From positions 7,208 to 71,207 of the forward strand of contig JAAUQL010000012.1 of NCBI GenBank assembly GCA_012033595.1: a DNA stretch of 64,000 nt, written 5' to 3'. This DNA comes from Cyclobacteriaceae bacterium (GTDB lineage: Bacteria > Bacteroidota > Bacteroidia > Cytophagales > Cyclobacteriaceae). Below the pieces are notes generated by a model, which had not been told where the DNA came from, ran no database searches, and was given only the letters and a program-made list of their open reading frames with translations. Made by a program: the position numbers and the translations under genes. Positions 3,931-50,743 of the stretch are shown piece by piece. Numbering within the stretch: position 1 is the stretch's first letter; each line of letters begins with the position of its first letter.

Positions 3931-4026
3931 TGTCGTATTGATTTCTATTTTATTTTAAACTTTAATTAAACATATAAATAATATTGATTCGCAGATATTT
4001 ATAGCCTGCCGATTAACTCAAATTAA

Positions 4027-5864: not shown

Positions 5865-5973
5865 GTTGTGTTTGGTGAAGTGGCCATCCTACAGGGAGCC
5901 TCCCAATGAACGGTTTGCGATTTTAATAAATTTTTATTGATATTTGAGCCTTTATAAAAAAAACAGATTGTAA

Positions 5974-12726: not shown

Positions 12727-12761
12727 TTTATTAATACATTTAAAAGTGAAGCCTCAGGATG

Positions 12762-13844
12762 TTAAAAATCAAGAATTGCATGAAAAGCAGGTTTGGGATT
12801 GAATTGTTGGTCGAAAAGCAATGGATAGTCGGTTCTACCTTTCACAAAATAATGGCTCAACCATGATTTGTCATCGGCGACACCCCAAAAAGTGACCGTT
12901 GTAATTTTATCCTTTTTATCCCTCAAGACTTCAAATACCTCCCGGTATTTTTCAGCTTGTTTCTGAGCCAGCTCGGGCGTGAATTCGATGACCTGCTTTG
13001 GCAGCTCTTCCTGTGGTAGATTGTGATAAAAAGGATAAACTGATATATCTAATTCTGTGATTTGAACCTCCAGCCCGAGGGAGGCAAAAAGGTCGATGGC
13101 CTGCGCAAGATTTTCTTTATTGACATCTTCCAATGTCCAATGTCCCTGCATGCCAAGTCCGTGTATTGGCGTGCCCTTATCGAGTAGCTCCTTTAGCACC
13201 CTATAGGTCTTGTCCCGCTTTACGGGGTCTATCAGGTTATAATCATTATAAAAAAGCTTAATCTCCGGATCGGCCTCATGAGCATATCTAAAGGCCATTT
13301 CGATATAGTCAGGTCCACATATCTTGTACCAGTCAATATTGTCGCGGTAGAGATGTGCAGTATCTTCGCTATTGGAAACGGCCTCATTTACCACATCCCA
13401 ACAATATACTTTGCCGCGATAATGGTCCAATACCGTGTGGATATAATTCTGCATCCGGTCGAGCATAGCGTCTTTGGTCAGGTATGCTCCCTGCTCATCG
13501 CGGTAAAACCAGCCATGGGTTTGGTTGTACCATACCAAGGTGTGACCCCTCACCACCATGTCATTGGTCTGAGCAAAATCAACGATCCGATCGCCAGCCT
13601 CGAAGGTGTACTCCCCGTCTTTGCTGAGGCTTGGCTTGGGTTTCATATCGTTTTCGGCTGTAATGCTGTTGAAGTGTGCCTTGAGCAACACCGTATCATA
13701 ATCGCTAAGGTGCGACTTGCCGATGGCCGCGCCAATTCGGAAATAGTCTTTGTATTTACTGGCCAGACTTTCAGTTTTTGGCGGAGCTTCGTTGCATTGC
13801 CACAGTAAAAATGAGCAAAAAATTATCGACAAAAATCTCATCAC
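12762..13844 (-). CDS. endo-1,4-beta-xylanase, glycoside hydrolase family 10
   Basis: 360 aa with a signal/lipobox (FLLWQCNE). GH10 signatures are present: FNSITAENDMKP, WDVVNEAV (acid/base Glu) and QITELDIS (nucleophile Glu). Confidence 0.9.
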   Translation of the reverse strand: MMRFLSIIFCSFLLWQCNEAPPKTESLASKYKDYFRIGAAIGKSHLSDYDTVLLKAHFNSITAENDMKPKPSLSKDGEYTFEAGDRIVDFAQTNDMVVRGHTLVWYNQTHGWFYRDEQGAYLTKDAMLDRMQNYIHTVLDHYRGKVYCWDVVNEAVSNSEDTAHLYRDNIDWYKICGPDYIEMAFRYAHEADPEIKLFYNDYNLIDPVKRDKTYRVLKELLDKGTPIHGLGMQGHWTLEDVNKENLAQAIDLFASLGLEVQITELDISVYPFYHNLPQEELPKQVIEFTPELAQKQAEKYREVFEVLRDKKDKITTVTFWGVADDKSWLSHYFVKGRTDYPLLFDQQFNPKPAFHAILDF

Positions 13845-14057
13845 GTTAGGGTTTTCGTTTAGAATATGTAAAAGAAGGAGGCTAAAAAATACGAATTGAT
13901 TTTAGCACTTATGGTGCTAAAGATACATCTAAAATCTAAAAGAATAAAAAGTACTCCAAAGTACCGCCCTTACATATTTTTTAGGATAAAAAGACCATAA
14001 AGCGCCATTTAACCCTATGGGATGCCTCCAAACCTGTCAGGTACTCTGCGAAGATGA

Positions 14058-15704
14058 TTATAATTTTACCAGCTTCTTGCTTTGGGTCAATGCTCCGTTT
14101 TCTAAGCGATACAGATAGGTGCCACTTTTCAAATGTTGCAGATTGTAGGTGATATGGTGTAGCCCTGCCTTTCTAAATTCATCGAGCACTGTAGCGACCG
14201 ATCGTCCTTGCACATCGAGCAATTCAATTTTCACCTTGCCGTCTGTGTTCATTCTAAAAGCAAACACTGTCTTGTCTGCTACAGGATTGGGGTAGCAATC
14301 GTCCAGAAAATTTCGCTGCGCAAAAAAACCTTCATTCGTACCGGTAATGCCATTGCCCACAATAGGTAGCCTTGAATCTACCCAATCAGACAGTAGTGTT
14401 GCCTCTACCGCTTCTGCATCGGCCTGGAGCCAATCTACCACAGCCGAGGTAAATACCTGTCTGTAGTCGAATTGATGAATCAGGTTTCCCCTGTTCAAAT
14501 TATTAAGATCGGGATTGGTGCCGGTGACGCCCGGTTGAACCATTTTGCCAAATACAAACATCGGAGCCGCAGTGCCATGGTCGCTGCCGTAGCTGCCATT
14601 GGAAAAAGCCCTCCGCCCAAATTCCGAAAAGGTCATGGACATAACCCGGTCTTCGAGGCCCAGCCCCTTGAGATCGTCCTGAAATGCCTTCATGGCTGAC
14701 GAGATGTGGTAAAGCAATGCCGCATGGGTGCCCATGGTGGCATCGTAAGACTCCACCTGCTCGGCATGGGTATCGAAGCCTCCCAATCTGGCGAGGAAAA
14801 TCTTGGTTTTGACACCACCACTGAGCAGGCGGGCAATCATTTTCAGTTGTGGGGCAAGCCTGTTTTTGATCCTGCCCGGAGGAGCGTTAAATGGATAAAG
14901 ATCGGGATATTCCACATCCTGACTGTTGCTTCCCTTTTCATATACCTCTTTGAGCCGACCCGCAAACTGATTCGATTTTTCCTCTATATCCATGATCCAC
15001 CGCAGCTCTTCGCCATAGTGGGTATTGGCGATAGACTCGGGAGGCAATCCGCCCACACTGCTTACCAAGTCATAAAACTGCTCCGGATTTTGGATAGATA
15101 TCGCTGTTGGAATTCCATTGTTGCGATGAAAAGCAAGTGACACCCCATTCCCAATCTCTATCGCCAAAGGATCGGGCATCTGGTCATTGGGATAGCTATC
15201 GGGATAGCCCGGGTATTCATGGTCGAGGTACCTGCCCATCCAGCCCGAAGGCAGGTATTCATTGTAGTCGCCACCCATAAACCAGATATCCCGGCTTCTG
15301 AAATGCGAACCATTCACATTTTCGTAAGCTACATTCTGAACTATATTCATTTTGCCCTGGTCATACAATGCCTTCATGTGCGTAAGATCCGGATGGAGCC
15401 CTGCCTGGTCGGCAGCTGAAAGGGACGAATCGAGGTCGATGTATTTTCTTTTCCCCTTGTCGGGAATGGCCAGGTTTGGCCTCAGATTATAATATTCCGC
15501 ATATTGCTCTATGGGAATGACGGTGTTAAGGCCATCGTTGCCCCCATGCAGTTGTATGAGGATGAGTACCCTGTCATTGTTGCTCGATGCGGCCAGCCGG
15601 TGCAAAGGCGCAGCCTGTGCCAGGGCGCTCAAAGGCAAACTGTTCAACATGAACGATGATCCGGCCGCTAAGGGCAATTTTTTTAAAAATCCTCTTCTTC
15701 TCAT
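14058..15704 (-). CDS. DUF1501 (sulfatase-fold) protein with a Tat signal and a C-terminal T9SS type A sorting domain
   Basis: The N-terminus MRRRGFLKKLPLAAGSS is a twin-arginine motif (RRxFLK). The DUF1501-typical motifs GGFDTH and SEFGR are present. The last ~80 aa (CYPNPVADKTVFAFRM...GTYLYRLENGALTQSKKLVKL) match the Por secretion tail pattern. Confidence 0.8.
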   Translation of the reverse strand: MRRRGFLKKLPLAAGSSFMLNSLPLSALAQAAPLHRLAASSNNDRVLILIQLHGGNDGLNTVIPIEQYAEYYNLRPNLAIPDKGKRKYIDLDSSLSAADQAGLHPDLTHMKALYDQGKMNIVQNVAYENVNGSHFRSRDIWFMGGDYNEYLPSGWMGRYLDHEYPGYPDSYPNDQMPDPLAIEIGNGVSLAFHRNNGIPTAISIQNPEQFYDLVSSVGGLPPESIANTHYGEELRWIMDIEEKSNQFAGRLKEVYEKGSNSQDVEYPDLYPFNAPPGRIKNRLAPQLKMIARLLSGGVKTKIFLARLGGFDTHAEQVESYDATMGTHAALLYHISSAMKAFQDDLKGLGLEDRVMSMTFSEFGRRAFSNGSYGSDHGTAAPMFVFGKMVQPGVTGTNPDLNNLNRGNLIHQFDYRQVFTSAVVDWLQADAEAVEATLLSDWVDSRLPIVGNGITGTNEGFFAQRNFLDDCYPNPVADKTVFAFRMNTDGKVKIELLDVQGRSVATVLDEFRKAGLHHITYNLQHLKSGTYLYRLENGALTQSKKLVKL

Positions 15705-15714
15705 GTCCTTTTGG

Positions 15715-17351
15715 TTAAAACAATTGGTATTCGGGAGATTGCATCATGGTATTGATCAGGTTTTCGAGATGAAAAACCACCTGAAAATCTTCCCCATCTA
15801 TAATGGTGGCTACCCAGTCTGCCTCATCTACATCTATGAGCAGGGTAGATTTGAAATAATCAAAACGCTCGGTGGTGATGGCCTCAGGCAGCAGATATTC
15901 GACAAAAAAAGTAACTATGGCCTGGGGCGAATTGAGGTCTATTCCTTCATCGCGGCAATAGTCCAATATATCGAGTTTATAGAGCAGCACATCATTTTCG
16001 TCTTTCTCTCCCAGCAGCAGGTTTGTGGAAATCTGGTATCTGCGCGCCAGGTTGTTCACGGTTATCCAATTTCGGTTATACGCCGGTTCCTGATAGTAGG
16101 CTTCGTAACCGGCCACATCATATGGTTCATAAAAGTCAAGACCCTGATTTTGAATTTTGTTGAAAAGTAAGTCTTGATAGACGGCATAAAAACGGCTCAA
16201 ATCGCTTTGCTGGTCGGGCAGGGAAACATTGAAAAATCGGAAAGCACCCAGCACCACCTCCAAGGGTGATTTAATAATCCCCCCCCTGTTATCATCTGTT
16301 TCCGTGCCATTGTCTGCATCAAAAAAGTGCTGGCTCGACAGCAATTGCTCCAGCACCGGTAGCAGTTCATATTCGGCTCCCATAAAGGTTTGGGCAAGTG
16401 GCCTTATAATATCGTTTTCTATTTCCGGAGTGATATCGTAATACACAAAATACCGGTACAATCTTCGGCAAATATACCTGGCTGTAGCCTCCTGCATAAA
16501 TATCATGTTCACCAACTGATCGAGCTCATCCAGTGCGGCTTCTTTGCTGGCTTTGTCACCTATCAATTCGATGGGCTGTATCGTGGTATTTTGAAAGTGC
16601 GGACTGAATTGTTTTATTGATGCATCGTGGTTGCTGGCTACGTTGCCCGTTCCTCTTATCACGCCCATGGCCACTCCGGTATCCGGATCGATATTGGAAT
16701 AATCAGGATCTGTATTGTAGCCCGATAGTACCTTGGACGATTCGATAATATCCTGCTCTGTATAGTTAGAATAGTCGTCGTCACTTATCTGATCTCCCTT
16801 TCCGATGGTAAAAAGTTCGAAATATTCACGCGCAAAGTTTTCGTTGGGTCGGCCTACGTCGTTGAGTCTGCCATCGAGATGTATCAGCATGGCATTGTCA
16901 TAGCATATTTTTTTGCCAGTTCCTTGAAATTGCCCCTGGCATAATGTCTGAATAATTTCAACTGATAGTAAATCGCCTCGCCACTTTCAATTCTGGAGCC
17001 AATGGTGGTGAAATGCGTATGGAAAAACCACGCCATGCGGTCTATGATCGAATTGCCCGAAGTCATCATCAGATCGAGCCACCATGCAAAGGTCATCTTC
17101 ATCAATTCATTCCCCTCGCTATTGGCCTCTGTTCGTTTAGGGTTTACCCACGGCGCGCCGGTTTTCAGATCAAGAGGCGGGCTGGCTGCTGGTTTTTCTT
17201 CGAATACGACGGCCAGCGCTTGCGTGATATTGTAACCCGAAAATGTATCAATATCCGTGCGGGATGGTCCAAAAGTGGTTCGCCTTAGAAAATGAGCCGC
17301 ATTTTTTTTGCCTAATGGAGCAGATAAATCGATGGGGTTGAGAGATGGCAT
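15715..17351 (-). CDS. DUF1800 domain protein, split by one homopolymer indel
   Basis: ORFs 16884..17351 and 15715..16890. Adding one base to the T7 run at 16908-16914 gives ELAKKICYDNAMLIHLDGRLNDVGRPNENFAREYFELFTIGKG, the conserved DUF1800 core. It forms the classic gene pair with the downstream DUF1501. Confidence 0.8.
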
Positions 17352-22632: not shown

Positions 22633-24081
22633 TTGACTGAAAAAGAGAATCTTCATCATATTTTCGAACGTTGGTCGGGGGAAAAGGTCGAACAGGTGCA
22701 TACCATTCCTCAGTCTGGTTCGTACCGGGAGTACTACAGGTTAGTGGGTTCTTCAAAAACTGCCATCGGGGTATTCAATGAAGACTTAAAAGAAAACAAG
22801 GCCTTTTTAAGCTTTACCAAACATTTTTCAAAATTAGGTTTGGCGGTGCCACAACTACTCGCTGAAGATGATGGTGGCAAAACTTATTTATTGTCCGATC
22901 TGGGCGATGAGGCACTTTTTGATTACTTGCAGAGGAAACGCAACCAGGTAGGTGTATTTCCAGGTACAGGGATCAAAGCTTACAAAGAAGCGCTGAATGA
23001 ACTGCCGAAATTCCAGATACTGGCCGGCCAGCACCTCGACTACTCGGTCTGCTATCCGCGGCCTGCCTTCGACAGGCAATCGATGGTGTGGGATTTGAGC
23101 TATTTCAAATATTATTTTTTGAAACTGGCCAAAATACCATTTGATGAACAAATGCTCGAAGATGACTTTTCCAGATTCATAGATTATCTGCTTCAGGCCG
23201 ATTCCAACTACTTCCTATATCGCGACTTTCAGTCCAAAAATATAATGATGGTAGAGGGCAAGCCATTCTTCATCGATTATCAGGGGGGAAGAAAAGGCGC
23301 ATTGCAGTACGACGTCGCCTCCCTGCTGTACGACTCCAAAGCAAACATACCTGGCGATATCAAGGACATTCTGCTAGATCACTATCTCGATGTACTTAGG
23401 CACTACCTCGATTTCGACAAAAAAGAGTGGGTAGCTTTTTATCGCGCTTTTGTACTTATCCGCCTGATGCAGGCTATGGGTGCCTATGGTTTTCGGGGAT
23501 TTTACGAGCGAAAAACCCAGTTTCTCAAAAGCATCCCCTACGCGCTGAAGCAACTCGACAACATCATCAATTCCAATCTTTTTCCTCCGGGTTTTCCCTA
23601 TATGGAGCATGTGCTGAGCAACCTAACCTCGTCTAAACAGTTGCTCAGGTACCGGCAGGAATTCAATACCCTGGTGCCCTTGAACATCGAACTAATGAGC
23701 TTTTCGTATCACAAAGGATTGCCTGTAGAAAAATACGGTCATGGCGGTGGATTCATTTTTGATTGCCGGGGCATTCACAACCCGGGTCGATACGAGCGCT
23801 TTAGCAGCAAAAATGGGAAGGATGGTGAAGTGATGGATTTTTTGAAAACCGGGGGCGAAGCAGATGAATTTCTCAACAATGCCATTCATTTGGTGGAGCA
23901 AACCATTGATAAATACCTCAACAGGGAGTTTAAACATCTGCAAATAGCCTTTGGCTGTACTGGCGGACAACACCGGTCGGTATATTGTGCTGAGAAAATG
24001 GCAGAAATTCTGAATGATAAATATGAAGACCGCATCAACATCAGGCTTAGCCATCGCGAATTAGACCCATTAGCAGGATGA
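22633..24081 (+). CDS. fusion protein: AmgK-like (APH-fold) sugar kinase domain + RapZ C-terminal domain
   Basis: 482 aa. The TTG start given by the track is uncertain. Residues ~1-330 carry APH-fold kinase motifs (YRDFQSKNIMM, FIDYQGGRKGALQYDVASLLYDS). Residues ~345-482 match the RapZ/YvcJ C-terminal domain (LMSFSYHKGLP, FDCRGIHNPG, IAFGCTGGQHRSVYCAEKMAE). Confidence 0.75.
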   Translation: MTEKENLHHIFERWSGEKVEQVHTIPQSGSYREYYRLVGSSKTAIGVFNEDLKENKAFLSFTKHFSKLGLAVPQLLAEDDGGKTYLLSDLGDEALFDYLQRKRNQVGVFPGTGIKAYKEALNELPKFQILAGQHLDYSVCYPRPAFDRQSMVWDLSYFKYYFLKLAKIPFDEQMLEDDFSRFIDYLLQADSNYFLYRDFQSKNIMMVEGKPFFIDYQGGRKGALQYDVASLLYDSKANIPGDIKDILLDHYLDVLRHYLDFDKKEWVAFYRAFVLIRLMQAMGAYGFRGFYERKTQFLKSIPYALKQLDNIINSNLFPPGFPYMEHVLSNLTSSKQLLRYRQEFNTLVPLNIELMSFSYHKGLPVEKYGHGGGFIFDCRGIHNPGRYERFSSKNGKDGEVMDFLKTGGEADEFLNNAIHLVEQTIDKYLNREFKHLQIAFGCTGGQHRSVYCAEKMAEILNDKYEDRINIRLSHRELDPLAG

Positions 24082-24820
24082 AAGCAATGATTTTTGCCGC
24101 CGGACTCGGCACCAGGTTGAGACCTGTAACCAACGACAAGCCCAAAGCCATGGCCACAATACATGGCACCACACTGCTCGAGATCACCATCAGGCGTTTG
24201 AAAAACCATGGATTCAAAGATATAGTCGTGAATGTACATCACTACGCAGACATGATTACTGAATTTTTGGAATCGAATAAGCATTTCGGCATCAATATTC
24301 AGATTTCCGACGAACGGGCATTGCTGCTGGACACCGGAGGCGGGCTAAAGCAGGCTGCACGTTTTTTTGACGACGGCAAGCCCTTTCTTGTGCACAATGT
24401 CGATACCCTCACGGATGTAAGCCTCAAAGATTTTTATGATTATCATATAAAAAACAGGCCTTAGCCACATTGTTGATCAGGCACCGGCCAGGAAGCAGGT
24501 TTTTCCTTTTTGATGAGGAAAAGAGATTGTGTGGTTGGGAAAATGTGGTCAGCAAGGAAAAAATCATATCGCGCCCCACTCAAAGACCTCCGGAGCAAAT
24601 AGCATTTTCTTGCCTGCATGTTATCGATCCGGACATTTTTAATCACATCCACGAAAGTGGTTGCTTTTCCATTATCGATGTTTATCTGAGATTGGCCAAA
24701 AACCATCCGATATACGGATACCTCGACGACCAGTCTTACTGGCTGGACGTCGGTACTCCTGAAAAATTAAAAAAAGGAGAAATGGAATTTGATATTGAAA
24801 AGTTGGTGGCGAGCAGGTAG
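24078..24820 (+). CDS. MurU-like sugar-1-phosphate nucleotidyltransferase, split by one homopolymer indel
   Basis: ORFs 24078..24464 and 24470..24820. The N-terminus is MKAMIFAAGLGTRLRPVTNDKPKAM. Adding one A to the A6 run at 24449-24454 gives YHIKKQALATLLIRHRPGSRFFLFDE. Its ATG overlaps the stop of the upstream kinase (ATGA). Confidence 0.8.
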
Positions 24821-27652: not shown

Positions 27653-28591
27653 CTATTCCAAAAATATATGTCTTAAATGTGTTTCACCATTGCTTATTAT
27701 ATGTAAAATGAAATTACCTTTTGGGAGGTCGTCAACAGCTATAGTTGTTGAATTTGAATCCCGAACTTTGACTGATTTCACTATTTGCTGCTTATCGTTA
27801 AAGATGTGTATAATAAATGGAATTTGTCTTTCTAAGTTTGGTGCTTCAGTTGTATTAGTGGCAAATGTGATATTAATTTCATTAGTGGCCGGATTAGGGT
27901 TTACCGATATAGTAAAGAAACCAAATACTTGAATATATCCTTCTATCAATTGGCTACCTGAACAATTATAAAGTCTTAAACTATAGGTATAAGTTCCGTT
28001 GGGAACAATGGTACCAGTACCATTCACACGCCCGTTCCATTCAATGTTGCCCCCTAGTAAGCCGTTGCTACCTAAAGTAATGGTTTCGCTCTTTGAAAAT
28101 AATGAGTATCCGCTGGTATTGAAAATACTGAGTTCGTACCGGTAAGCATTTATTGCCCCGAATCCTTTATCCGCATCTGCTACAAACCAGGTATCATTAT
28201 ACCCATCACCGTTTGGAGTAAAAACATTGGGAATGAAAATATCAAAGCTACCCAAAAGTATCCGGGGAACAGTGACTGAAGAATATCCTGTAGCTCCAGT
28301 TGAAACATCTCTCACAAATACGATAAAATCAGTAGTGATATCGAGGTAAGTTGTAACCGTCCTTAAATTATTCGGCCCTGGAAAAGGTATCCCGGGGGCT
28401 GTAAGCGACCATTGATAGGTGTAATTCCCCGATCCATTTGATACATGGGTTGTAAGTGTTCTTGCGCAAGAATTTGCAGAAAATCCTACCTCATCAATGG
28501 TTACTAGAAGGGTTTGTCCGAATAAACCACTTGTCGAAATGATCATAGAGGTTATAAAATAAGTCAGCCATACAGATGTTTTAAGTTTCAT
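27653..28591 (-). CDS. T9SS cargo protein with tandem C-terminal sorting domains (type B gliding-associated CTD followed by type A Por tail)
   Basis: ORF 27653..28642 trimmed to Met18 (MKLKTSVWLTYFITSMIISTSGLFGQ). IPNVFTPNGDGYNDTWFV...WNGRVNG...PNGTYTYSL is the type B CTD signature. The final ~85 aa (ISVNPNPATNEINITF...LPKGNFILHIISNGETHLRHIFLE) is the type A signature. Confidence 0.7.
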   Translation of the reverse strand: MKLKTSVWLTYFITSMIISTSGLFGQTLLVTIDEVGFSANSCARTLTTHVSNGSGNYTYQWSLTAPGIPFPGPNNLRTVTTYLDITTDFIVFVRDVSTGATGYSSVTVPRILLGSFDIFIPNVFTPNGDGYNDTWFVADADKGFGAINAYRYELSIFNTSGYSLFSKSETITLGSNGLLGGNIEWNGRVNGTGTIVPNGTYTYSLRLYNCSGSQLIEGYIQVFGFFTISVNPNPATNEINITFATNTTEAPNLERQIPFIIHIFNDKQQIVKSVKVRDSNSTTIAVDDLPKGNFILHIISNGETHLRHIFLE

Positions 28592-28605
28592 TTCAGTTTT
28601 TGTTT

Positions 28606-29768
28606 TTAGATTTTGAACAATATATCTACATTCATCCCCCATTGCCCTGTATTTCTCTTCATATATTCACCATTAACTTTGTTGAAGAAATACTTATAGT
28701 TGGGCATTAGGCTTATATGCATTCGGGATTTTAACTCATAGGCTGGCCTGACTCCTACAATTCCACCAAAAAGTGTTCTGTTGGCATTTTTGGAAAAAAC
28801 ATCCGTATTAACTAAGTCTTCATTGTTTTCAAAGGAGGTATGCTCAGCTTTTTTTAGCAAGAAACTAGCAAATCCCCCAACTGCGCATGACAGTTTGAAT
28901 GCTTTTTTTTTACCATATTCAAATTAACAAGCACGGGGATATCTAAATATGCCAGATCCAAGCAGGTTTCTTTGGGAATGGGTGTTGGATCGTTGATATC
29001 GAAAATCCTATAATGATACATATAGGAAAAATTCCGTGTGGTGTAAACGGGAATCAACTGAAATGAATATGGAGAAACTGACTCAAAAAGCACAGAAAGC
29101 CCTATACTATAATTAATGTCCGTAGTGTAGGTTTGATCCCCATTCTCCGGTGTCTTGAAACTAAACTGGTAGCGATTGAAAGAGAAGTTGGGTCCAAAGA
29201 GAATACTTACCTTACCTCCAACATTTTTAGATGTATAGCCATTCTCAGATGGGATTGTTTTTATCTTTTCAAATGGCAGCGATGCTTCATGTTGGTTGCC
29301 TAAATGCTCCATTAAGCCTTTTCTGGAAAAACATGGGAATGTGGCATCTTGAATGCCTCCGCTATGCTTCGACCTCAATGACGAACTGGTTAATGTATCA
29401 TTTACATCTATGCTTGTCGAGGAAATAAGAGTGGTGACTGTGGGAGAGAATTGATGCTCTGACTCATCCACTTTCCTAAGTACAACATGGTTTTCGATTA
29501 CTTTGAATTCAATATGTAAACCTGAAAAAAGCTCCTTTAGCACAATATCCAAGTGTTGTTCCACTACTTGATAATTAACCTTCTGCGTGAGAGGAACCTG
29601 CACATTGCCATATGAAAAATCAATGCAATATGTTTTACCGATATAGTCAAGTACTTCCTCCAACTGAGCCTCTTCAAACTTAATGGTCACCTTTTGCTGA
29701 AGGTCTTGTGCAAAAGCTGTCAGACAGACTAAACGAATCAAAAGCTGAATCAAAATTGCTTTATTCAT
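28606..29768 (-). CDS. STN (secretin/TonB N-terminal) domain fused to a small porin-family outer-membrane beta-barrel, split by one homopolymer indel
   Basis: ORFs 28854..29768 and 28606..28860. After the signal peptide comes VTIKFEEAQLEEVLDYIGKTYCIDFSYGNVQVPLTQKVNYQVVEQHLDIVLKELFSGLHIEFKVIENHVVL, an STN pattern. The C-terminal half has LDLAYLDIPVLVNLN and alternating beta-strand character. Adding one base to the T9 run at 28903-28911 joins VKKKAFKLSCAVGGFASFLLKKAEHTSF. Confidence 0.65.
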
Positions 29769-29784
29769 AGCTTATTGGATCAAC

Positions 29785-30773
29785 CTATTTACACCCTTTG
29801 CCTGAAAGAATATATTCATTGTGATCATATGAATAATCAATTCCAAGGCTGTATTTCAGAACTTCCATTACCGTGTTAAGCCGGGCATTATCGAATGATC
29901 CCGTAAAACGACAATTAAGAATTTCCGGCGTATTTACTTCAAACTTGATGTCATAATACACTGATAATGCATATATCACATTTTTAAGCTCCGTATTATC
30001 AAAAACAAGCTTTTGGGTCTTCCATGACAAAAAATTGGGGTTGGTATTCATGGAAATTCTTGTCGACTTTTCCGGTGATTGACCAAAGCCATTTCACCAG
30101 CTCCTAGTAAGTTGTTTTCTTGTCCATCAAAAACTTTTACTATGCCCTGAACAACGGTTACCTGAAGTTCATCTTTATTCAATTCTTTTACATTAAAAGA
30201 AGTCCCCAGCACCGTAACAGTAGCTTGTTGAATTTTTATAATGAAAGGTCTCTTATCATTTTTAACCTCAAAATAAGCCTCTCCTTTCAAGTCCACTATT
30301 CGCTGGCGTGACCCTTGGTTGAAAACGATCTGGCTTTCTTTATGCAAATAAATTCTACTACTGTCTGGTAGATCAATATTTGTCACCGAATGCTTGGAAG
30401 CCATGATTTGAACACTTAAAGTGACGGATTTAACATTTCTGTAATACATCCAGGCTAGAAAAGTTGTACTTGCTAATAGAAAGATCATTGCCGCGGCAGT
30501 TAGCAGGGAATTAAAGTTGGGTCTGCTATGTCCATTATGCGCTGCCAATACCCTTTCACAGCTGTCAATTTGCCGCAATAATTTTTGTTTTTCTTCTTCC
30601 AGATCGTAAACAGGTTCCTCAAATTGACCGGTAAGTTCCCAGACTTCCTTTAGCTCTTCAAATTTTTGACGATTGCTGAGATCATAGTTTAGCCACTCCT
30701 CCAACGCTTCTTTTTCGGCAAAAGAAATGTGCCCTTTCAAAAATTTTCGTATGAGTGTCCAATGTCCCTTCAT
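29785..30773 (-). CDS. FecR-family transmembrane sensor (anti-sigma-like), split by an apparent frameshift
   Basis: ORFs 30048..30773 and 29785..30051. It has a cytoplasmic N-terminus, a TM segment (LLTAAAMIFLLASTTFLAWMYY), a FecR domain (GEAYFEVKNDKRPFIIK...VTVLGTSFNV) and a C-terminal DUF4974-like piece (LSWKTQKLVFDNTELKNVIYALSVYYDIKF). One extra base in the T4 run at 30068-30071 joins the two frames. Confidence 0.75.
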
Positions 30774-30917
30774 ATCAGCTAATCTATTTCAAATATAATC
30801 TTTAAACTTTTTTACTTCTGCCAGAGAATTATAATTTAATATCCAATGTCGTTTAATTAGCGAATTGGGTTTGACTCCGAAGGAGTCATAAGTCTATGCA
30901 AACAATGTTTCTATAGA

Positions 30918-30954
30918 TATTCGACGCCAAACGGGGTCGAATAAGGTCGAATAA
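30918..30954. promoter_or_regulatory. candidate operator: tandem direct repeat 2 x GGTCGAATAA plus an inverted half-site TATTCGAC
   Basis: GGTCGAATAA occurs at 30935-30944 and again at 30945-30954. The inverted copy TATTCGAC is at 30918-30925. The site lies 145-180 nt upstream of the FecR-like gene start (30773). Confidence 0.3.
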
Positions 30955-31107
30955 TCTAAACTAAGCGACATTGATTTAATATTTGCAAAACATTTGCAAA
31001 AAGGTGAATAATCAAAACATTCCTTGTTCGATGCTTTTCAATGAAAAACAATATCTTTTGCAATACTAGATGTTGCATGCTTTTAATTAATATCTTGATT
31101 TCATGTT

Positions 31108-31763
31108 TTAATAAATGGTTTTAAACTTAGGCGAGAATAAGGTATATCTGGTATTGGGCTGCCCGTTGGTTTCAGTAAATATGTGGATACGTCCTTGTCT
31201 AAAACCTGTAGGAACCTCTATAATTATGGAGTCAGAACTCGCAGTAAGCAATGTACTCAAATACTGTCCACTTTCTGTCAAAGGAATAAAAAAGCCATTC
31301 AATGCATCTTCATAAAGGATCAGGTATAGTTCCTCATTTGGGTTAAAATTTTTCCCAATCATTTTAATAATTGTTCCCGGGGGTCCTTCTTGAGGAATCA
31401 TTGCAGTAATTTCTGCCAAAGGATTTTCAGAAACAATTATAAGGATTGTATCAGCTAGCAGACCAGGGCTGGATACAATAAGTTCGGCCTTGGAATAAGT
31501 TGACAGTTTGGGGATGAAAAAGGATAAAGAAGTATCAGAAGCCGATATTGCTTCGGCAACAACACCATTTACCGCTATTCTGTTTTTTTCAAGCACCAGA
31601 CTAAATCGCCATGTACAGTAACCAACGTTCCCGTAGGGCCACCTAGAGGGTTTACATAGTATAAAGCTACGCAGCTAAGTCGACCGGGTTGCCAATCATT
31701 GTCTTCACATCCTGCACTTGCGAAGCAAAATCCAATTGCTAAAACAATAGCCAACAGACTCAT
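31108..31763 (-). CDS. IPT/TIG-domain lipoprotein (two IPT repeats), split by one homopolymer indel
   Basis: ORFs 31575..31826 (trimmed to Met22, MSLLAIVLAIGFCFASAGCEDN lipobox) and 31108..31596. Adding one base to the run at 31603-31605 gives VNPLGGPTGTLVTVHGDFSLVLEKNRIAVNGVVAEAISASDTSLSFFIP, a textbook IPT pattern. The second repeat is IPQEGPPGTIIKMIGKNF. Confidence 0.65.
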
Positions 31764-31898
31764 ATTTTTAGCTTCTTTTTCTCTAAAAACATTCGAGCCG
31801 TAATAAATTTTAAAGTGTGTTTGCATAACCTTTTAGTGTTTTAAGGTAATCTTAACATGTAATGAAAGAAATAATTAACTTCTTGCTTGTCATGTAAA

Positions 31899-31933
31899 TA
31901 CACACTAAAAACCATCTCCTACCCCCCCCTATC
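31899..31933 (-). repeat. copy 1 of a conserved 35-nt upstream element containing a G8 tract (minus-strand reading GATAGGGGGGGGTAGGAGATGGTTTTTAGTGTGTA)
   Basis: 31 of 35 positions are identical to the copy at 35496-35530, in the same orientation. It lies 73-136 nt upstream of the IPT/TIG gene and downstream of the hairpin at 32077-32097. Confidence 0.6.
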
Positions 31934-32187: not shown

Positions 32188-32898
32188 CTATTCAAACGAT
32201 ACAGTGATGACATTTGTCATTTGTACCCATGTTGAATAGCGTATCTCACCACTAGGCAATTCCTCATACGGCATTTCTTTTGGGTTTTTTGCATAAGCAA
32301 CCATATAAAGAGGTTGATTAAGAGGTAAATTCAATTCTTTAGGTGTCATCTTTTTTTCGAAGTGGGTCACAGGTTCTGAAAAACAACAATAGGCCACAGG
32401 GATTTGATATGACCATTTCTCTGTATCTACTTGTTTGCCGGTGGAAAAAAAAATCTTCATGTCGTAGTTGGATATAGGCGTGCTGGCAAATTGGAACACG
32501 AATGAAGCTCCGTCTTTGAATATCTCAAAGTTTTTGATTTGATAATCTGGCTTTTCGTACATTAAAAGCGGTAGATCCAGGAAAACCTGCTTTGGGCCAG
32601 GTGTCACCTCAAAACTGAAAACCTTCCTTATCCCCAAATCAGCCCTTTCAAAGGTAAGGTTATAGGTTCCTACAGGCACATTGGTCATTGAAAACCTTCC
32701 ATTATTGTTTGTTATAGCAATAATATCCGTATCGTCCAACTTAATTAAAATCCCAGCTTGTTCGGAGGATAGTTTACCGGCTTCATCCAATATCTGAACA
32801 AAACCAACAACACCACCATGCAATATTATGGTCTCTTGCCGGCAGCCGGTAAAAATAACTATACAAACCAGCCATAAATAGACGATAGTCTTTTTCAT
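32188..32898 (-). CDS. lipoprotein with carboxypeptidase-regulatory-like (CarboxypepD_reg) domain, paralog 3
   Basis: 236 aa with the lipobox IFTGCRQE. GGVVGFVQILDEAGK...ITNNNGRFSMTNVPVGTYNLTFERADLG is the CarboxypepD_reg pattern. The C-terminal beta domain carries PLYMVAYAKNP. Confidence 0.6.
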   Translation of the reverse strand: MKKTIVYLWLVCIVIFTGCRQETIILHGGVVGFVQILDEAGKLSSEQAGILIKLDDTDIIAITNNNGRFSMTNVPVGTYNLTFERADLGIRKVFSFEVTPGPKQVFLDLPLLMYEKPDYQIKNFEIFKDGASFVFQFASTPISNYDMKIFFSTGKQVDTEKWSYQIPVAYCCFSEPVTHFEKKMTPKELNLPLNQPLYMVAYAKNPKEMPYEELPSGEIRYSTWVQMTNVITVSFE

Positions 32899-32903
32899 TC
32901 AAA

Positions 32904-33659
32904 TCAAGGCATAAATGCTTCTGCCACGTTGGAACTACGTATGTTAGTCGTGTAATATACATTGTTGCCACTGACATTATCTATATAATAAAGTTCACAT
33001 GAGGAACAGGCATAGACTATGAGATAGATTTTTCTGGCTGCAAGCAATGCCTTGTCTTGGATTGGGAAATTAAACGTTACCCTTTCGACTCCTACACGAT
33101 TGCCTGTGACACCAGTTTGCAAGTAGAAGTTACTCGAAACGGCATCGCTGGTTGATAAAAAATACCTTGCACCGGTATAGCTAAGTTTTTTCGGATTGTA
33201 TAGCAGTTCCGAAGTTGCCGAAAAGTATGTTGACCCGTCTATCAGATAAATTTTCATTTTCAGGTTTGCCAGATAAATATGAGATTGGGCCACCAGGTTT
33301 ATCGTTTCTGATAATTGAGCTGTTTCTTCACCACCCACAAAAGCATATCCATATTTTTTGTAAGGATTAAAGCCCTCCTTTGAAAAGGTAATATCGTATG
33401 TTCCTGAAATCAACCCATACATAATGAAACCCCCATCTTTGTCTGAAAAGGTTTTGTGAATATTTTTGCCATTATCCATAGTTATTAGTACTCCTTCATG
33501 CGAATCACTATCTTTCCCAGCTGCATCTTTCAGAAATACTTCCCCTGCAAGACTTCCGTTGATCCCAACAACCTCTGTATTCTCCGAGCAAGCTACAAAA
33601 ACCAGCAAATAAAAAAGCATGTAAAAGTAATCGGCAATTTGAAACCTCAAGAAATTCAT
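32904..33659 (-). CDS. lipoprotein with CarboxypepD_reg domain, paralog 2
   Basis: ORF 32904..33767 trimmed to Met37 (MNFLRFQIADYFYMLFYLLVFVACSEN lipobox), which removes the overlap with the upstream gene. GSLAGEVFLKDAAGK...DKDGGFIMYGLISGTYDITFSKEGFN is present, and the C-terminal domain carries KIYLIVYACSS. Confidence 0.6.
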   Translation of the reverse strand: MNFLRFQIADYFYMLFYLLVFVACSENTEVVGINGSLAGEVFLKDAAGKDSDSHEGVLITMDNGKNIHKTFSDKDGGFIMYGLISGTYDITFSKEGFNPYKKYGYAFVGGEETAQLSETINLVAQSHIYLANLKMKIYLIDGSTYFSATSELLYNPKKLSYTGARYFLSTSDAVSSNFYLQTGVTGNRVGVERVTFNFPIQDKALLAARKIYLIVYACSSCELYYIDNVSGNNVYYTTNIRSSNVAEAFMP

Positions 33660-33660
33660 A

Positions 33661-34404
33661 TCATGGAATACATATGGTGAGAATTTCTGTTGGTGATCCC
33701 AATCCGGTGTATATCTTTTCTTGGTTTTCATTATAATGATTACCAAAATCCCTTCCATCCGCACCATAGGCTATCAAATACAAAGTGTCACCCGTAAAGA
33801 GTAAGGGCATAAACAGATGAACAGTGATCGAATTCACCACCCCGGGTATAACCAATAAATCATAACCCCTGGAACCGATGTACTCTTTCGATGACACCTT
33901 CGAAAGGTCACCAAGGAATAATTGAACACCTGCAACTGCCTTTTTGTGTGTACTCATTTCGGTTTCGATATCCATATTTATAATGATTAAATACTCATTT
34001 ACCGCTTCTACATTCATATTTTTTATCTCGGTCGCTGAGTGGTACATCGTCATTTTTGTGTTGAGATAAACGGGGGCTTTCCCACCCAAAAAAGGAATAG
34101 CTTCTATCTTGGCTGTATCGAAGCCATCTTTTGCAAAAAGAAATTTGTAGGTGCCGGTGGTCAGCTCATCGATCATAAAATCCCCCTGTTCATCGGTAAC
34201 GGCGATGGGCTCAGAAAGATCCGTTCCCACGTAAACCTTCACGTCTGCATGGTTGTCCAGCATGGATCCGGCACCATAGGTCTGTACATTCCCTTTAATG
34301 GTTCCTTTGAGCGCCAAGGGTTCCAGCCTTGTTTCCTGGCAGCTTGAGAAGATCAAGCTTGTCCACAAGCATAACATAACTGCTTTGCCGTGAATCATAG
34401 CCAT
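33661..34404 (-). CDS. lipoprotein with CarboxypepD_reg domain, paralog 1
   Basis: 247 aa with the lipobox LIFSSCQET. GTIKGNVQTYG...TDEQGDFMIDELTTGTYKFLFAKDGFD is present, and the C-terminal domain carries TLYLIAYGADG. Confidence 0.6.
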   Translation of the reverse strand: MAMIHGKAVMLCLWTSLIFSSCQETRLEPLALKGTIKGNVQTYGAGSMLDNHADVKVYVGTDLSEPIAVTDEQGDFMIDELTTGTYKFLFAKDGFDTAKIEAIPFLGGKAPVYLNTKMTMYHSATEIKNMNVEAVNEYLIIINMDIETEMSTHKKAVAGVQLFLGDLSKVSSKEYIGSRGYDLLVIPGVVNSITVHLFMPLLFTGDTLYLIAYGADGRDFGNHYNENQEKIYTGLGSPTEILTICIP

Positions 34405-34625: not shown

Positions 34626-35324
34626 CTAACCCACTTTCAGGTTGGGTGCAAACACGCCAACCCTAAGTGTTTTACCATCATGGCGTGTATTGCGTACCTC
34701 CAGGCGATAATTACCTGCCGGCAGATCAGGAATCTTGAGGGTCAGCGTCTTTGGTTCATTGGTACGGATCAACGCTGTTTTTACCTCACTCCCGTCTGAC
34801 TGATTATGAAAAAAAACACCTTCCTCTTCCAGATTGTTATAGACCTTGAGCAATTGGCCTGAAATTTCCAGCACATCTCCAGGGCTCAGTTGGCTATCAG
34901 AAGTGTCACTGCCCCAATCATATACTCGATCTACTAGGGGCTGGTTCTGACGTACATCTACCTTTTTCAAGGTCACGCTGTCCACTGCACTGCTCACACC
35001 GGATTTCAGCTTAATACCTACGATCAGGGAATGTCGAGCAGGATCAAATTGGTCATCTTCGTTTTGGAACACCCCGCTTATGTCAAAGCGGGTGTTCACA
35101 TATGTGTCGCTATAGGCTTCTCCTTCCCGGATGTAACCGGTGATGGTGTCCCAGTAGGCATCAATTACCGCCTTTACCTCTGTAGGTTTGAGGATAGAGC
35201 CGGGACCGGTCACTTTTTTTATAAGGTCTTCCAGTTTATTGGTAGTGATATCCACAGGCCGGGCTATCTGGTCTTCAGGATCGTCTTGGGTGAGTTCGTT
35301 CGGGTAAAGTGCGTAATTCAACAT
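34626..35324 (-). CDS. Bacteroidota HU-like DNA-binding domain protein with C-terminal DUF4469 (Ig-like) domain
   Basis: 232 aa. The N-terminus MLNYALYPNELTQDDPEDQIARPV...LKPTEVKAVIDAYWDTITGYIREGEAY...NTRFDISGVFQNEDDQFDPARHSLIVGIKL fits the HU-HIG/CCDC81-like bacterial family. The C-terminus (TLTLKIPDLPAGNYRLEVRN) fits DUF4469. Confidence 0.7.
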   Translation of the reverse strand: MLNYALYPNELTQDDPEDQIARPVDITTNKLEDLIKKVTGPGSILKPTEVKAVIDAYWDTITGYIREGEAYSDTYVNTRFDISGVFQNEDDQFDPARHSLIVGIKLKSGVSSAVDSVTLKKVDVRQNQPLVDRVYDWGSDTSDSQLSPGDVLEISGQLLKVYNNLEEEGVFFHNQSDGSEVKTALIRTNEPKTLTLKIPDLPAGNYRLEVRNTRHDGKTLRVGVFAPNLKVG

Positions 35325-44025: not shown

Positions 44026-45306
44026 TTATTTTAAGCCAAGGTTCAATCTGAGGTTTACCCCTGCTGTACTAAAGGATAATTCGCTACTGCTCAATCTGCT
44101 CAATGGATGCTTGTAATAAGGTTCTACAATTAAACGCAACTGGCTATTTAATTTATAGGAGTATCCAAACGAAAGGTTTAACTGTCCGGCAAGGTCAAAC
44201 TGCTCAAATGCTTCAGATTGCCTTATCTCTGTCTCGGAAATCTGGACAGTCTGATAAACTTCAACAAGTTTCCCATTCTGACCTTCCTGATAGGTGGTTA
44301 TGATATTTGGTATAAGAAATTCCGATTCGGTTTTTTCTCCCAGGTATGCCAGAGAGGATACACCTACTGCCACATACATAGCATTATCTTTTCGTTCCGA
44401 AAAAGTATATCTTATGTTCACCGGAATGTCCAGGTTCAACAAATCAGTGGTTACAGACTGCAAAGCTTTGGAACCGGTAAGTACTGAAGGGTTTTCATTG
44501 ACCTCACTGGTCAACGTTTGATCTGATAGATGTACTCCGGTGTATAGCGCAAATTTTTCATTAAAGGGGATTTCCGTAGTCAAACCGCCACCTACCCCAG
44601 GTTGTGGAGATGATGTCCCCGGTGAAGAGCTCATCAATGATGATAAGACGATGCCAAAGACAATTGGGGTGTTATTGGTTTTAGCCTCTAATTCCTCCAT
44701 ATTCTGCTTAGCAAGCAAATGCTCTTCTAATGAAGATTGAGTCATGGTAGTATGATTTGTTACCAGACTGGGAATAGTTTGTGGTGATAGATTGAAGGAT
44801 AACCCTATTGGGGAAATCTTTTCAAGATTTAGAACCAAAGGATTTATTTTAGCACCCTCCTCTTTGGCATTAGTATTATTGTAGAACTGATTATTGGATG
44901 CTATAAATACATCTGTTTTGCCGGACGGCTGCTCTGATTGTTTTTTGACTTTAGTATCAGTTTCTGATGATATTAGGTTCTGAAGTGACGACCCTTCATC
45001 AGAGTCTAAAGCATTGTCAGCATTCGTAATATCTTTTTCTTTCTGTTCAAGGGTATCTTTTTCAACTGCTTGCCGGTAAATAATTGTCTCTTGAGATGCG
45101 CCAGGAAAAAGTTCATTCTGGAACAATACAGCAAATACAATAAGCGATATGGAAGCTGCAATTCCTGCCGCTTTATAAAAAATAATAAAACTTCGCTTAC
45201 GATTACGTTTTTGTTCAAACCTTTCCCAGGCACCTTTTTCATATGGAACTTCGTAGTCGGTTAAAATCTTTCGGACTTCAATTCTATGGTGATTTTTATC
45301 TTCCAT
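44026..45306 (-). CDS. membrane-anchored protein with low-complexity linker and C-terminal porin-family beta-barrel domain (sits in the anti-sigma position)
   Basis: 426 aa. It has a ~45-aa cytoplasmic N-terminus, a TM segment (FIIFYKAAGIAASISLIVFAVLF), an S/T/N/Q/E-rich linker and a C-terminal OMP_b-brl-like part (LLNLDIPVNIRYTF ... GVNLRLNLGLK). It overlaps the upstream ECF sigma gene by 11 nt. Confidence 0.6.
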   Translation of the reverse strand: MEDKNHHRIEVRKILTDYEVPYEKGAWERFEQKRNRKRSFIIFYKAAGIAASISLIVFAVLFQNELFPGASQETIIYRQAVEKDTLEQKEKDITNADNALDSDEGSSLQNLISSETDTKVKKQSEQPSGKTDVFIASNNQFYNNTNAKEEGAKINPLVLNLEKISPIGLSFNLSPQTIPSLVTNHTTMTQSSLEEHLLAKQNMEELEAKTNNTPIVFGIVLSSLMSSSPGTSSPQPGVGGGLTTEIPFNEKFALYTGVHLSDQTLTSEVNENPSVLTGSKALQSVTTDLLNLDIPVNIRYTFSERKDNAMYVAVGVSSLAYLGEKTESEFLIPNIITTYQEGQNGKLVEVYQTVQISETEIRQSEAFEQFDLAGQLNLSFGYSYKLNSQLRLIVEPYYKHPLSRLSSSELSFSTAGVNLRLNLGLK

Positions 45307-45886
45307 TGTCTATTCCAAAGTAAGCATGACATAACTCTCTCAACCTTTGCTTTGCCCTGGTGAGATATACCCTGGAAGAACTTTCAGGAATGCCTAACTG
45401 GGTGGCAATTTCCTGATGGCTGTATCCCTCTATTTCATAGAGATTAAAAGTATAACGCTGTATATCTGGTAACAGAGCAATAATTTGTAATAGATCCTCA
45501 GCTGACAGTTTGGAAAAAGCACTTTCATTTGATGTAACAAAAAAGTGGTCAATTTCAATATAATGAGAGTGGCGTTTATTTCTTCGCAAATGATCTAAGG
45601 CAGAATTGATGGTAATTTTTCTTAACCAACCCTTAAATGATTGTTGCAAGTCAAATTTGTTGATGTGAGAAAAAACTTTCATAAAAGTATCATTCGTAAT
45701 TTCCTGGGCATCTTTTTTATCAGAAGCATAACGTAAACAAATGGCCATAACAAATCCATAAAAATGCTTGTAAAGCTTCTCTTCAGAATGATTGATGCCT
45801 TGCTGGCAAGCATGAACAAGTAGGGCTTCAATCTGAGGACGTTTAAATTCGTCAGAGGATACCTCCGGGTTTGATTCTTTATACAC
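45296..45886 (-). CDS. ECF-type RNA polymerase sigma-70 factor
   Basis: 196 aa. Region 2 is DAQEITNDTFMKVFSHINKFD...FKGWLRKITINSALDHLRR. Region 4 is IQRYTFNLYEIEGYSHQEIATQLGIPESSSRVYLTRAKQRLR. Confidence 0.85.
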   Translation of the reverse strand: MYKESNPEVSSDEFKRPQIEALLVHACQQGINHSEEKLYKHFYGFVMAICLRYASDKKDAQEITNDTFMKVFSHINKFDLQQSFKGWLRKITINSALDHLRRNKRHSHYIEIDHFFVTSNESAFSKLSAEDLLQIIALLPDIQRYTFNLYEIEGYSHQEIATQLGIPESSSRVYLTRAKQRLRELCHAYFGIDNGR

Positions 45887-50068: not shown

Positions 50069-50743
50069 TTAAATCTTACTCGCCTCAAAGATAAAAGAGA
50101 ACAGAACAATATTGTTCAGGTATGACTTCAAATGACGCCGAAGGTGTTTCAAAGCTTTGGTAATTTGTTTTTCTACCACTTTTTTTGAAATATTCAGATG
50201 CCTGGCAATCTCTATATAGCTCATTTCCCCTGAACGGCTTAGATTAAAGATTAATTTGCACTTGGGAGGCAATGAATCTATTGCCAGCTTGGCCAAGCGC
50301 TCCAGGTCTTCGCGTTCTAACGAATCTTGTCCAAGATTTCTGGTGATTTCATCGATGGCTTGCAAGGGAAGGACATTTCGTGTTTTTCGGTTGTCTCGAA
50401 GATAATTAAGGGAACGGTTAACTACAGCTCTCGCAAGGAAAGGTGCAATTGGATCTTTAAGTCCTAGTCGATGACGTTTTGTCCAAATATTTAAAAACAT
50501 CTCCTGAACTATATCCTTGGCGGCTTCATTGTCCCCGACAATTTTAAAGGCCACTCTGATCATCCGATCAAAGTACAAATCATATAACAAATTAATGGAC
50601 TGCACATGATTTTTGCGCAACAATTCGAGGATGTCTTCATCACCTTTTTTGAAATGATCTGCCAACAAAGTATGGTTTTTAAAAATTTGTTTCCAATACA
50701 ATAAAGATAGGATAATTTCACATAAGTGTAGTTTATGGATCAT
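50069..50743 (-). CDS. ECF-type RNA polymerase sigma-70 factor without an adjacent anti-sigma gene
   Basis: 224 aa. Region 2 is AAKDIVQEMFLNIWTKRHRL...APFLARAVVNRSLNYLRD. Region 4 is KCKLIFNLSRSGEMSYIEIARHLNISKKVVEKQITKALKHLR. The start codon choice is uncertain. Confidence 0.8.
   Translation of the reverse strand: MIHKLHLCEIILSLLYWKQIFKNHTLLADHFKKGDEDILELLRKNHVQSINLLYDLYFDRMIRVAFKIVGDNEAAKDIVQEMFLNIWTKRHRLGLKDPIAPFLARAVVNRSLNYLRDNRKTRNVLPLQAIDEITRNLGQDSLEREDLERLAKLAIDSLPPKCKLIFNLSRSGEMSYIEIARHLNISKKVVEKQITKALKHLRRHLKSYLNNIVLFSFIFEASKI

Follow-up and report, generated by a model that had tools for sequence, protein, structure and literature searches.

A FecR locus with a small STN-barrel and a type IX secretion substrate in a Cyclobacteriaceae bacterium: a putative sigma-less variant of a conserved Cytophagales module

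Introduction

TonB-dependent transducers are the assumed signal source of FecR anti-sigma factors. We analysed a 64,000-nt stretch of a Cyclobacteriaceae bacterium genome (assembly GCA_012033595.1, contig JAAUQL010000012.1, positions 7,208-71,207), called the window below and used for all coordinates unless another locus is named, in which a FecR gene stands beside the gene for a small outer-membrane-type barrel. Four co-directional genes at 27653-31826 (-) encode, in ascending order, a small type IX secretion system (T9SS) substrate (the cargo), a protein joining an STN-like domain to the barrel (the STN-barrel protein), a FecR-type anti-sigma factor and an IPT/TIG lipoprotein. An earlier note on this DNA had pointed to the set as a surface-signalling-like locus with neither a sigma factor nor a TonB-dependent transducer, and had raised the possibility that cargo secretion or attachment is coupled to a FecR-type sensor. 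We describe the genes, the gene order of their relatives and the readings that we draw from them.

The locus

Three of the four genes are split by frameshifts. The STN-barrel gene (28606-29768, (-)) is broken into open reading frames (ORFs) 28606-28860 and 28854-29768, the FecR gene (29785-30773, (-)) into 29785-30051 and 30048-30773, and the TIG gene (31108-31826, (-)) into 31108-31596 and 31575-31826. Proteins were repaired with one frame change per split gene, giving 387 aa for the STN-barrel, 328 aa for FecR and 218-239 aa for the TIG protein. Intact homologues from other assemblies have 391, 331 and 231 aa, and because the repaired proteins match them along their full length, the repairs recover the ancestral genes. 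The four genes listed in the earlier note are therefore present, with the amendment that three are split and that the lengths of 387 and 328 aa are reached only on repair.

The repaired STN-barrel protein consists of a signal peptide (cleavage between AFA and Q), an STN/N0-fold domain, a linker and a barrel. Pfam assigns the barrel to OMP_b-brl_2 (PF13568; 41.6 bits, gathering threshold (GA) 27). Neither Plug, TonB_dep_Rec nor PF11751 is matched in the protein at E<=1, and NCBIfam has no model for it.

The protein was modelled with AlphaFold2 from an alignment with 47 homologues (A1, 48 members). The mean predicted local distance difference test score (pLDDT) is 84. Residues 26-99 form a beta-alpha-beta/beta-alpha-beta-beta domain (pLDDT >90), residues 107-182 a disordered linker, and residues 188-386 an all-beta barrel (pLDDT >95) of about 200 aa and 8-10 strands, ten being the best reading. 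The barrel is thus shorter than the 250 aa or so first estimated; that there is no plug and no large barrel agrees with both the Pfam search and the model. Foldseek places the barrel near OmpA-TM, OmpW, OprG, OmpX and Pla/OmpT and does not group it with TonB-dependent receptors or with FadL/PorP-type barrels, the best FadL-family match being TodX at a probability of 0.28.

Modelled separately (pLDDT 88), the N-terminal domain is closest by Foldseek to the C-domain of a Parabacteroides FecR-like protein (4M0H; template modelling (TM) score 0.73, root mean square deviation 1.6 Å). FpvA (2IAH) and PupA (2A02) both match at TM 0.70, and further matches include FoxA, PupB, FecA (2D1U) and secretin N0 domains, that of PilQ among them. 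Compared as a profile with PDB sequences, the domain gave PilQ N0 at 7e-4, PupA 2A02 at 0.011 and 4M0N at 0.07. On the predicted structure, the N-terminal domain has the STN fold.

The only conserved feature of the linker is a short D-[ST]-[ILV] island, found in about 37 of the 48 aligned members (window residues 142-144, A1 columns 174-176). It occupies the position of the TonB box in TonB-dependent transducers and is too short to call.

Relatives and gene order

An exhaustive phmmer search against 1.84 billion representatives gave 373 matches at E<=1e-3; about 50 clusters (50% identity) of 360-405 aa match the repaired STN-barrel end to end. A word-indexed homologue search with the same protein returned only the window's own truncated ORF. 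Among the A1 members OMP_b-brl_2 is found in 48 of 48, FecR_C in 34 and STN in 30 (STN at E<=0.01, best 2e-11). Conservation is strongest in a DPxPIPDxT...YLExP motif, with P261, P265 and T268 nearly invariant, and the DPxPIPDxT part maps to predicted extracellular loop 2 of the AlphaFold2 model. Databases name the family members 'STN domain-containing', 'PorT family' or 'hypothetical'. No description of the module was found in the literature searched, and the STN-barrel cassette family is apparently undescribed.

About 20 loci with STN-barrel relatives at 25-46% identity were examined (L002-L008, the P0015 locus, L009-L018 and L020-L023), sampling about ten family branches and ten named Cytophagales genomes. 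Wherever the contig allows, FecR lies directly upstream of the STN-barrel gene and a homologous CHU_C gene directly downstream. A sigma factor gene comes first in every locus outside the window's clade whose contig reaches that far, and an extracytoplasmic function (ECF) sigma gene adjoins FecR in L008-L013, L015-L018, L020, L021 and L023.

By branch, the closest relative (P0002, 46% identity; loci L002/L003) has the order TIG, cargo, FecR, STN-barrel, cargo, with all genes intact. P0003 (40%) and P0004 have FecR, STN-barrel, cargo, and P0038 has FecR, STN-barrel, CHU_C. The order sigma, FecR, STN-barrel, CHU_C is found for P0005, P0015, P0021 and P0025, and P0007 has sigma, FecR and STN-barrel before its contig ends. 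The ten-locus set, retrieved by a narrow alignment and representing the Chryseolinea/Ohtaekwangia branch only, comes from Ohtaekwangia koreensis DSM 25262, Chryseolinea spp. and Flammeovirgaceae and Cyclobacteriaceae metagenome-assembled genomes; it shows the same four genes tightly packed, with one of the ten contigs cut before sigma. A metagenome scan with the close clade recovered L002 and nothing else.

As read from these sequences, the canonical module is ECF sigma, FecR, STN-barrel and small CHU_C protein, and it is conserved in Cytophagales. The link between FecR, barrel and a C-terminal domain (CTD) of type B, which had been put forward from the gene order of the window alone, is kept in every relative examined and goes beyond an accident of gene order. 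The synteny check proposed with it also came out in favour: the neighbours within the four-gene block are kept, with FecR, STN-barrel and CHU_C in this order in all usable loci.

Some cassettes have a fifth gene. In L008, L009, L012, L018, L022 and L023 the CHU_C gene is followed by one for a helical protein of about 400-500 aa (395-502), without a Pfam family or signal peptide and with 28-50% identity between branches (L008 3904-5412, L009 6967-8211, L012 9917-11173, L018 9835-11022, L023 9951-11135). The window has no homologue of it. No PorP/SprF-like or TonB-dependent gene lies beside the canonical cassettes. Directly downstream of the L023 cassette, at 11251-17161 of that locus, there is a classical sigma/FecR/SusC (STN+Plug)/SusD set; both FecR architectures therefore coexist.

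FecR, cargo and TIG lipoprotein

The repaired FecR protein has an anti-sigma motif, a transmembrane helix, and the domains FecR (PF04773, 65.9 bits) and FecR_C (PF16344, 59.3 bits), both above GA, which supports its first description as FecR-like; each half-ORF passes Pfam alone. DUF4880 has no Pfam match in it. In alignment, the N-terminal motif LIxKxLxGxISxxExxxLExWL...VWE and a hydrophobic segment are shared with the FecRs of sigma-linked cassettes. The N-terminal anti-sigma region is 54% identical to that of L002, equal to the remainder of FecR, and its retention fits continued sigma binding in trans. The FecR_C domain is 70% identical to that of L002, 35-47% to cassette FecRs outside its own clade and 19% to a SusC-type FecR from a contig that also holds a cassette. 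Cassette FecR_C is a distinct subtype, which is consistent with a dedicated STN partner. Conserved cysteine pairs are seen in cassette FecR_C domains (CRFTG / G.GC) and in the cargos (ANSC / NCS).

The cargo (27653-28591, (-), 312 aa) has a signal peptide, one SprB-type Ig-like domain (ANSC...GSGxYxYxWS), a CHU_C domain (PF13585; 50.4 bits, cutoff 27) and, at its C-terminus, a type A CTD (Por_Secre_tail, PF18962; 33.6 bits, cutoff 27). TIGR04183 scores 24.3 bits, over its cutoff of 23, and TIGR04131 33.5 bits, just under its cutoff of 35. The cargo had been called a type B CTD protein: CHU_C is indeed present, but it is internal, the end of the protein is a type A CTD and TIGR04131 stays under its cutoff.

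Identity between the window cargo and its positional counterpart in L002 is 56%. In an alignment with ten cassette homologues the cargos are homologous throughout, CHU_C following a signal peptide and a single SprB-type Ig-like domain in each. Cargos from beyond the window's clade, L021 excepted, stop right after CHU_C at 216-240 aa, and CHU_C is C-terminal in L008, L009, L012, L018, L022 and L023. The cargos of the window, L002, L004 and L021 extend further, by a type A CTD of about 85 aa; tandem CHU_C and Por_Secre_tail domains are thus carried by window 27653-28591, L002 5148-6113 and 8410-9345, L004 1828-2766 and L021 9124-10080. In the L021 cargo the CHU_C motif TPNGDGxND is deleted, as though the type A signal took over secretion.

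The TIG protein is a lipoprotein with two IPT/TIG domains (TIG 30.7 bits in Pfam). It shares 56% identity with its positional counterpart in L002, and its lipobox, ASAGC, is conserved between the two. An element, AAACACTAAAA, precedes the TIG ATG and is conserved in the window and L002. The TIG start is probably the ATG at 31826 and not 31763, so that the lipoprotein noted earlier keeps its domain and lipobox while its start probably moves.

Sigma factor

The only sigma-70-family ORFs in the window are 45296-45886 and 50069-50743, 14.5 and 19.3 kb from the FecR start; as the earlier note had it, none lies within 14 kb of the locus. Its statement that there is no TonB-dependent transducer extends to the whole window, in which no TonB-dependent receptor was detected with long STN-bearing proteins as probes. 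No sigma remnant was found at 30.76-36.2 kb, the spacer at 30774-31107 included. In this spacer (334 bp, (-)) no ORF reaches 60 aa, much as the ORF-free region of about 330 bp upstream of FecR had been described. It holds a GACTCC-TTCG-GGAGTC hairpin. At the spacer position L002 has a second cargo gene, which is missing in the window.

What does not hold is that the parts list is intrinsically sigma-less. An ECF sigma gene opens the canonical module, and in the spacer upstream of the L002 TIG gene there is a decayed fragment of sigma region 4 (E 2e-7), continuing in a second frame. Because of this fragment and of the sigma-first loci outside the clade, the sigma-less layout is derived and lineage-specific. 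Beside the fragment, at about 3590-4060 of L002, lies an insertion of about 430 bp that resembles a miniature inverted-repeat transposable element, with terminal inverted repeats of about 23 bp (TTAATTAGAGTCTGTCTATAAAG...).

The ORF at 50069-50743 (-) encodes a FecI-like ECF sigma (TIGR02985, 143 bits) with no adjacent anti-sigma gene. Its identity to cassette sigmas is 33-38%, compared with 23-25% for 45296-45886, the other window sigma; against a hidden Markov model of cassette sigmas the two score 164 and 44 bits, respectively. Next to it, 48418-49920 encodes a 500-aa type A CTD protein homologous to T9SS proteins that flank the L002 cassette. The earlier note had named this sigma as one candidate for the FecR, a sensible choice given that it is the closest match to cassette sigmas in the window, and by sequence similarity it is the likeliest candidate for a trans-acting partner of the orphan FecR.

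The sigma at 45296-45886 overlaps a 426-aa gene, 44026-45306 (-), whose product begins with a short N-terminus and a transmembrane helix at about residues 41-62, followed by a long low-complexity linker and, C-terminally, by an OMP_b-brl_2 barrel. This sigma is already partnered, since it and its neighbour make up a Dma-type pair at 44026-45886 (PMC10927553).

About 76 bp upstream of the TIG start, a GGTAGG-N11-AGTGT element (31902-31923, (-)) is the single match to this pattern in the window (expected 0.05), the pattern being partly derived from the window sequence itself. A similar element lies upstream of TIG in L002, and canonical cassettes have GGTAGGGT-N13/14-GTGT[CT]AC upstream of the sigma gene. 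As a possible ECF-type promoter the element is a weak lead.

Genomic surroundings

From about 28000 to 51000 the window has a G+C content of 0.36-0.39, versus 0.42-0.48 in the flanks, and this stretch may be an island. Besides the cassette and the two sigmas it contains three paralogous CarboxypepD_reg-like lipoproteins (32188-34404) and an HU/DUF4469 protein (34626-35324), as well as a beta-lactamase-family gene. No tRNA was found in the window. The canonical cassettes of L021 and L023 adjoin tyrosine integrases, and an HTH_17 excisionase-like gene is present in L008 and L021.

Comparison with known systems

Cell-surface signalling of the FecA/FecR/FecI, FoxA/FoxR/FoxI and PupB/PupR/PupI kind, and of the SusC type in Bacteroidota, shares three features with the cassette: a FecR-family anti-sigma with FecR_C, an outer-membrane protein with an N-terminal STN-fold domain and, in the canonical cassette relatives, a TIGR02985 ECF sigma first in the operon. 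The partner in the cassette differs: it lacks a plug and a 22-strand barrel, and is instead an OMP_b-brl_2 barrel of 8-10 strands and about 200 aa. The cassette also shows no apparent TonB-driven transport and has an invariant extra gene, for the small T9SS substrate, and in the window the sigma is not adjacent.

Dma anti-sigmas carry an OMP_b-brl_2 barrel joined via a disordered linker (PMC10927553). Common to both systems are this barrel type, a long disordered periplasmic region, an anti-sigma/ECF sigma pair and their occurrence in Bacteroidota. Dma is one polypeptide across both membranes, whereas the cassette has two proteins that presumably meet via STN and FecR_C; Dma has neither a T9SS partner nor a FecR domain, and the cassette has both. 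In its layout the cassette resembles a Dma anti-sigma divided into two proteins (PMC10927553): the window FecR and STN-barrel split the Dma elements between them, and the window gene 44026-45306 has the one-polypeptide layout.

PorP/SprF barrels bind type B CTD proteins and hold them at the cell surface, and the genes for type B CTD proteins are as a rule linked with those for such shuttle barrels (PMC9143113, PMC12618676). The STN-barrel gene likewise adjoins a CHU_C/type B CTD gene, and a surface-holding role is plausible. The earlier note had placed the STN-barrel in the PorP/SprF position. It does adjoin the cargo gene there, but its reading as a PorP/SprF homologue finds no support, and membership of that family was rejected: PorP/SprF are 14-strand FadL-like barrels (PF11751) without STN, whereas the STN-barrel lacks a PF11751 match and has the 8-10-strand OmpA, OmpW, OmpX and Pla as its structural neighbours. 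A further difference is that cargos in the window's clade carry a type A CTD too.

With the PorA-PorXY-SigP pathway of Porphyromonas gingivalis (PMC7712824, PMC12152298) the cassette shares a small T9SS cargo in a pathway ending at an ECF sigma. There the sensor is a two-component histidine kinase, PorY, and PorA has a type A CTD; in the cassette the FecR/STN-barrel pair would take the place of the sensor.

Interpretation

We lean, by a small margin of confidence and by analogy, towards reading the locus as a derived, sigma-less member of the ECF sigma/FecR/STN-barrel/CHU_C module, which would be a T9SS-linked, TonB-independent variant of cell-surface signalling. Domain content, folds and the invariant gene order are the observations from which this reading starts, and its mechanism follows the Fec/Fox/Pup systems.

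The barrel would sit in the outer membrane, with its periplasmic STN domain on a long flexible linker binding the C-terminal domain of FecR and so controlling FecR stability, much as the FoxA signalling domain binds the C-domain of FoxR and shields it from proteolysis (PMC11637429). FecR would hold the ECF sigma at the inner membrane via its conserved N-domain. On the outside, the T9SS-exported CHU_C protein would be the barrel's cell-surface partner, in the way that type B CTDs dock on PorP/SprF, and the conserved extracellular loop is the candidate docking site. The input might be the presence of the CHU_C protein, or a ligand or load on it. Signalling would be TonB-independent; a TonB-driven step is not expected of a protein that lacks both plug and large barrel. 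In this genome the operon would have lost its sigma, leaving FecR to act in trans, most likely on the 50069-50743 sigma. The full chain, in which CHU_C docks on the STN-barrel loop and its occupancy, ligand or mechanical load is relayed through the linker and STN:FecR_C contact to a sigma in trans 19 kb away, is a tentative proposal that we would not yet bet on.

Several observations weigh against this reading. The STN domain on a porin-type barrel, as first proposed, stands at the level of the family and of the fold, but the window protein itself scores 23.7 bits for STN (PF07660), under the GA of 28.4, and FecR_C scores 20.6 bits over the same residues. This sub-threshold score is the caveat to an otherwise favourable outcome, in which the STN assignment did not fail, neither a plug domain nor a sigma gene turned up in the locus and synteny was found in relatives. 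The modelled fold cannot separate a signalling domain of the TonB-dependent transducer type from one of the FecR_C or secretin N0 type. All that pairs FecR with the 50069 sigma is similarity and shared orphan status. The spacing of the canonical promoter-like motif is 4 nt longer than that of the window element. CHU_C is internal in the cargos of the window's clade, and a type B role in secretion or anchoring is therefore uncertain there. Finally, the locus holds three frameshifts in 4.2 kb, versus at least four in the other 59.8 kb of the window (Poisson P ~0.003, if the outside count is complete), and this despite fewer homopolymers (1.9 per kb, versus 3.0 for the window); the window copy may therefore be dead.

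This last point leads to the alternative that survives best, though we think it the less probable account: that the locus is a decaying relic, with the sigma lost, the cassette pseudogenised, all three frameshifts real and the locus inactive. Three of its four genes are broken, and the excess of shifts just described fits decay. The FecR shift falls within 30051-30093, outside any long homopolymer (no run of 5 or more); the STN-barrel shift lies most likely in an A9 run at about 28903-28911, and the TIG shift within 31578-31674. The Logan assembly of SRR11470444 is identical to the window over 15.3 kb, the three locus shifts included, with one T at about 20248 as the sole difference. In the sister lineage L002 decay of the sigma has already occurred, and the second cargo gene of L002 is missing in the window.

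The same frameshifts look different beside the rest of the window. The essential topA is split as well (5974-6171 and 6108-8285, within 5974-8285), as are ilvD (51407-52666 and 52588-53082, within 51407-53082), a GH43 gene (2784-3930) and a nucleotidyltransferase gene (24078-24820), and the split topA and ilvD suggest that the assembly suffers from indel error in general. The reads behind the Logan contig and the window assembly may be the same. Each split gene of the locus has a single shift and no in-frame stop, and aligns in full to intact homologues at 46-56%; L002, also sigma-less, has all its genes intact. Homopolymer sequencing error as the sole cause of the frameshifts is hard to sustain in full, since neither the FecR nor the GH43 shift falls in a run of 5 or more, and homopolymers are scarcer in the locus than in the window. 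The scattered frameshifts of the window point either to indel errors in the assembly or to a genome with unusually many pseudogenes. Error and decay are both viable accounts of the locus shifts, and the window copy is an atypical and possibly decaying member of its family.

Another reading, rather unlikely in our view and again built on analogy, makes the system a periplasmic sensor of T9SS status, with the CHU_C protein as a reporter substrate in place of a surface partner; on a stall in secretion its CTD would be sensed by STN or FecR. The mature cargo, of about 195 aa, is minimal, with a single Ig-like domain, a CTD and no enzymatic domain, and it is always encoded inside the sigma/anti-sigma operon. 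There is also a precedent for a T9SS cargo CTD as the periplasmic ligand of a regulatory sensor, in that the CTD of PorA is sensed in the periplasm by PorY (PMC12152298, PMC7712824). A status sensor leaves unexplained, however, the constant presence of a barrel with a strongly conserved extracellular-loop motif.

It is improbable that STN-barrel and CHU_C are a secretion or anchoring pair only, with the barrel as dedicated shuttle or anchor in the manner of PorP/SprF, sigma and FecR only regulating expression on some other cue, and the STN-like domain in a non-signalling role, for example docking to the T9SS or to proteins associated with peptidoglycan. In favour of such a pair, barrel and cargo are adjacent in all loci, as type B CTD and shuttle-barrel genes typically are (PMC12618676, PMC9143113), and the STN/N0 fold also occurs in secretins with no role in sigma signalling. 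Against it, the barrel is unlike PorP/SprF in sequence and size, FecR directly precedes it in every locus with upstream flank, cassette FecR_C is a distinct conserved subtype, and STN beside FecR is the defining pairing of cell-surface signalling.

Significance

The constant company of an STN domain on a tiny plug-less barrel and a T9SS substrate suggests that transport powered by TonB is not needed to drive a FecR pathway, and that such pathways can be tied to protein secretion or surface display. If the signalling reading is true, Bacteroidota would have, besides SusC-type transducers and Dma, a third trans-envelope architecture for controlling sigma factors, and the cassette would be the first FecR pathway linked to the T9SS. 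A testable system is offered by Ohtaekwangia koreensis DSM 25262, which is in culture and has the full cassette on NZ_FUZU01000004.1, with sigma at 3407-3997, FecR at 4073-5056, STN-barrel at 5071-6246, CHU_C at 6257-6910 and the helical protein at 6967-8211. Work on the cassette could address how Bacteroidota sense conditions at or beyond the outer membrane, and what purpose their small type B CTD proteins serve.

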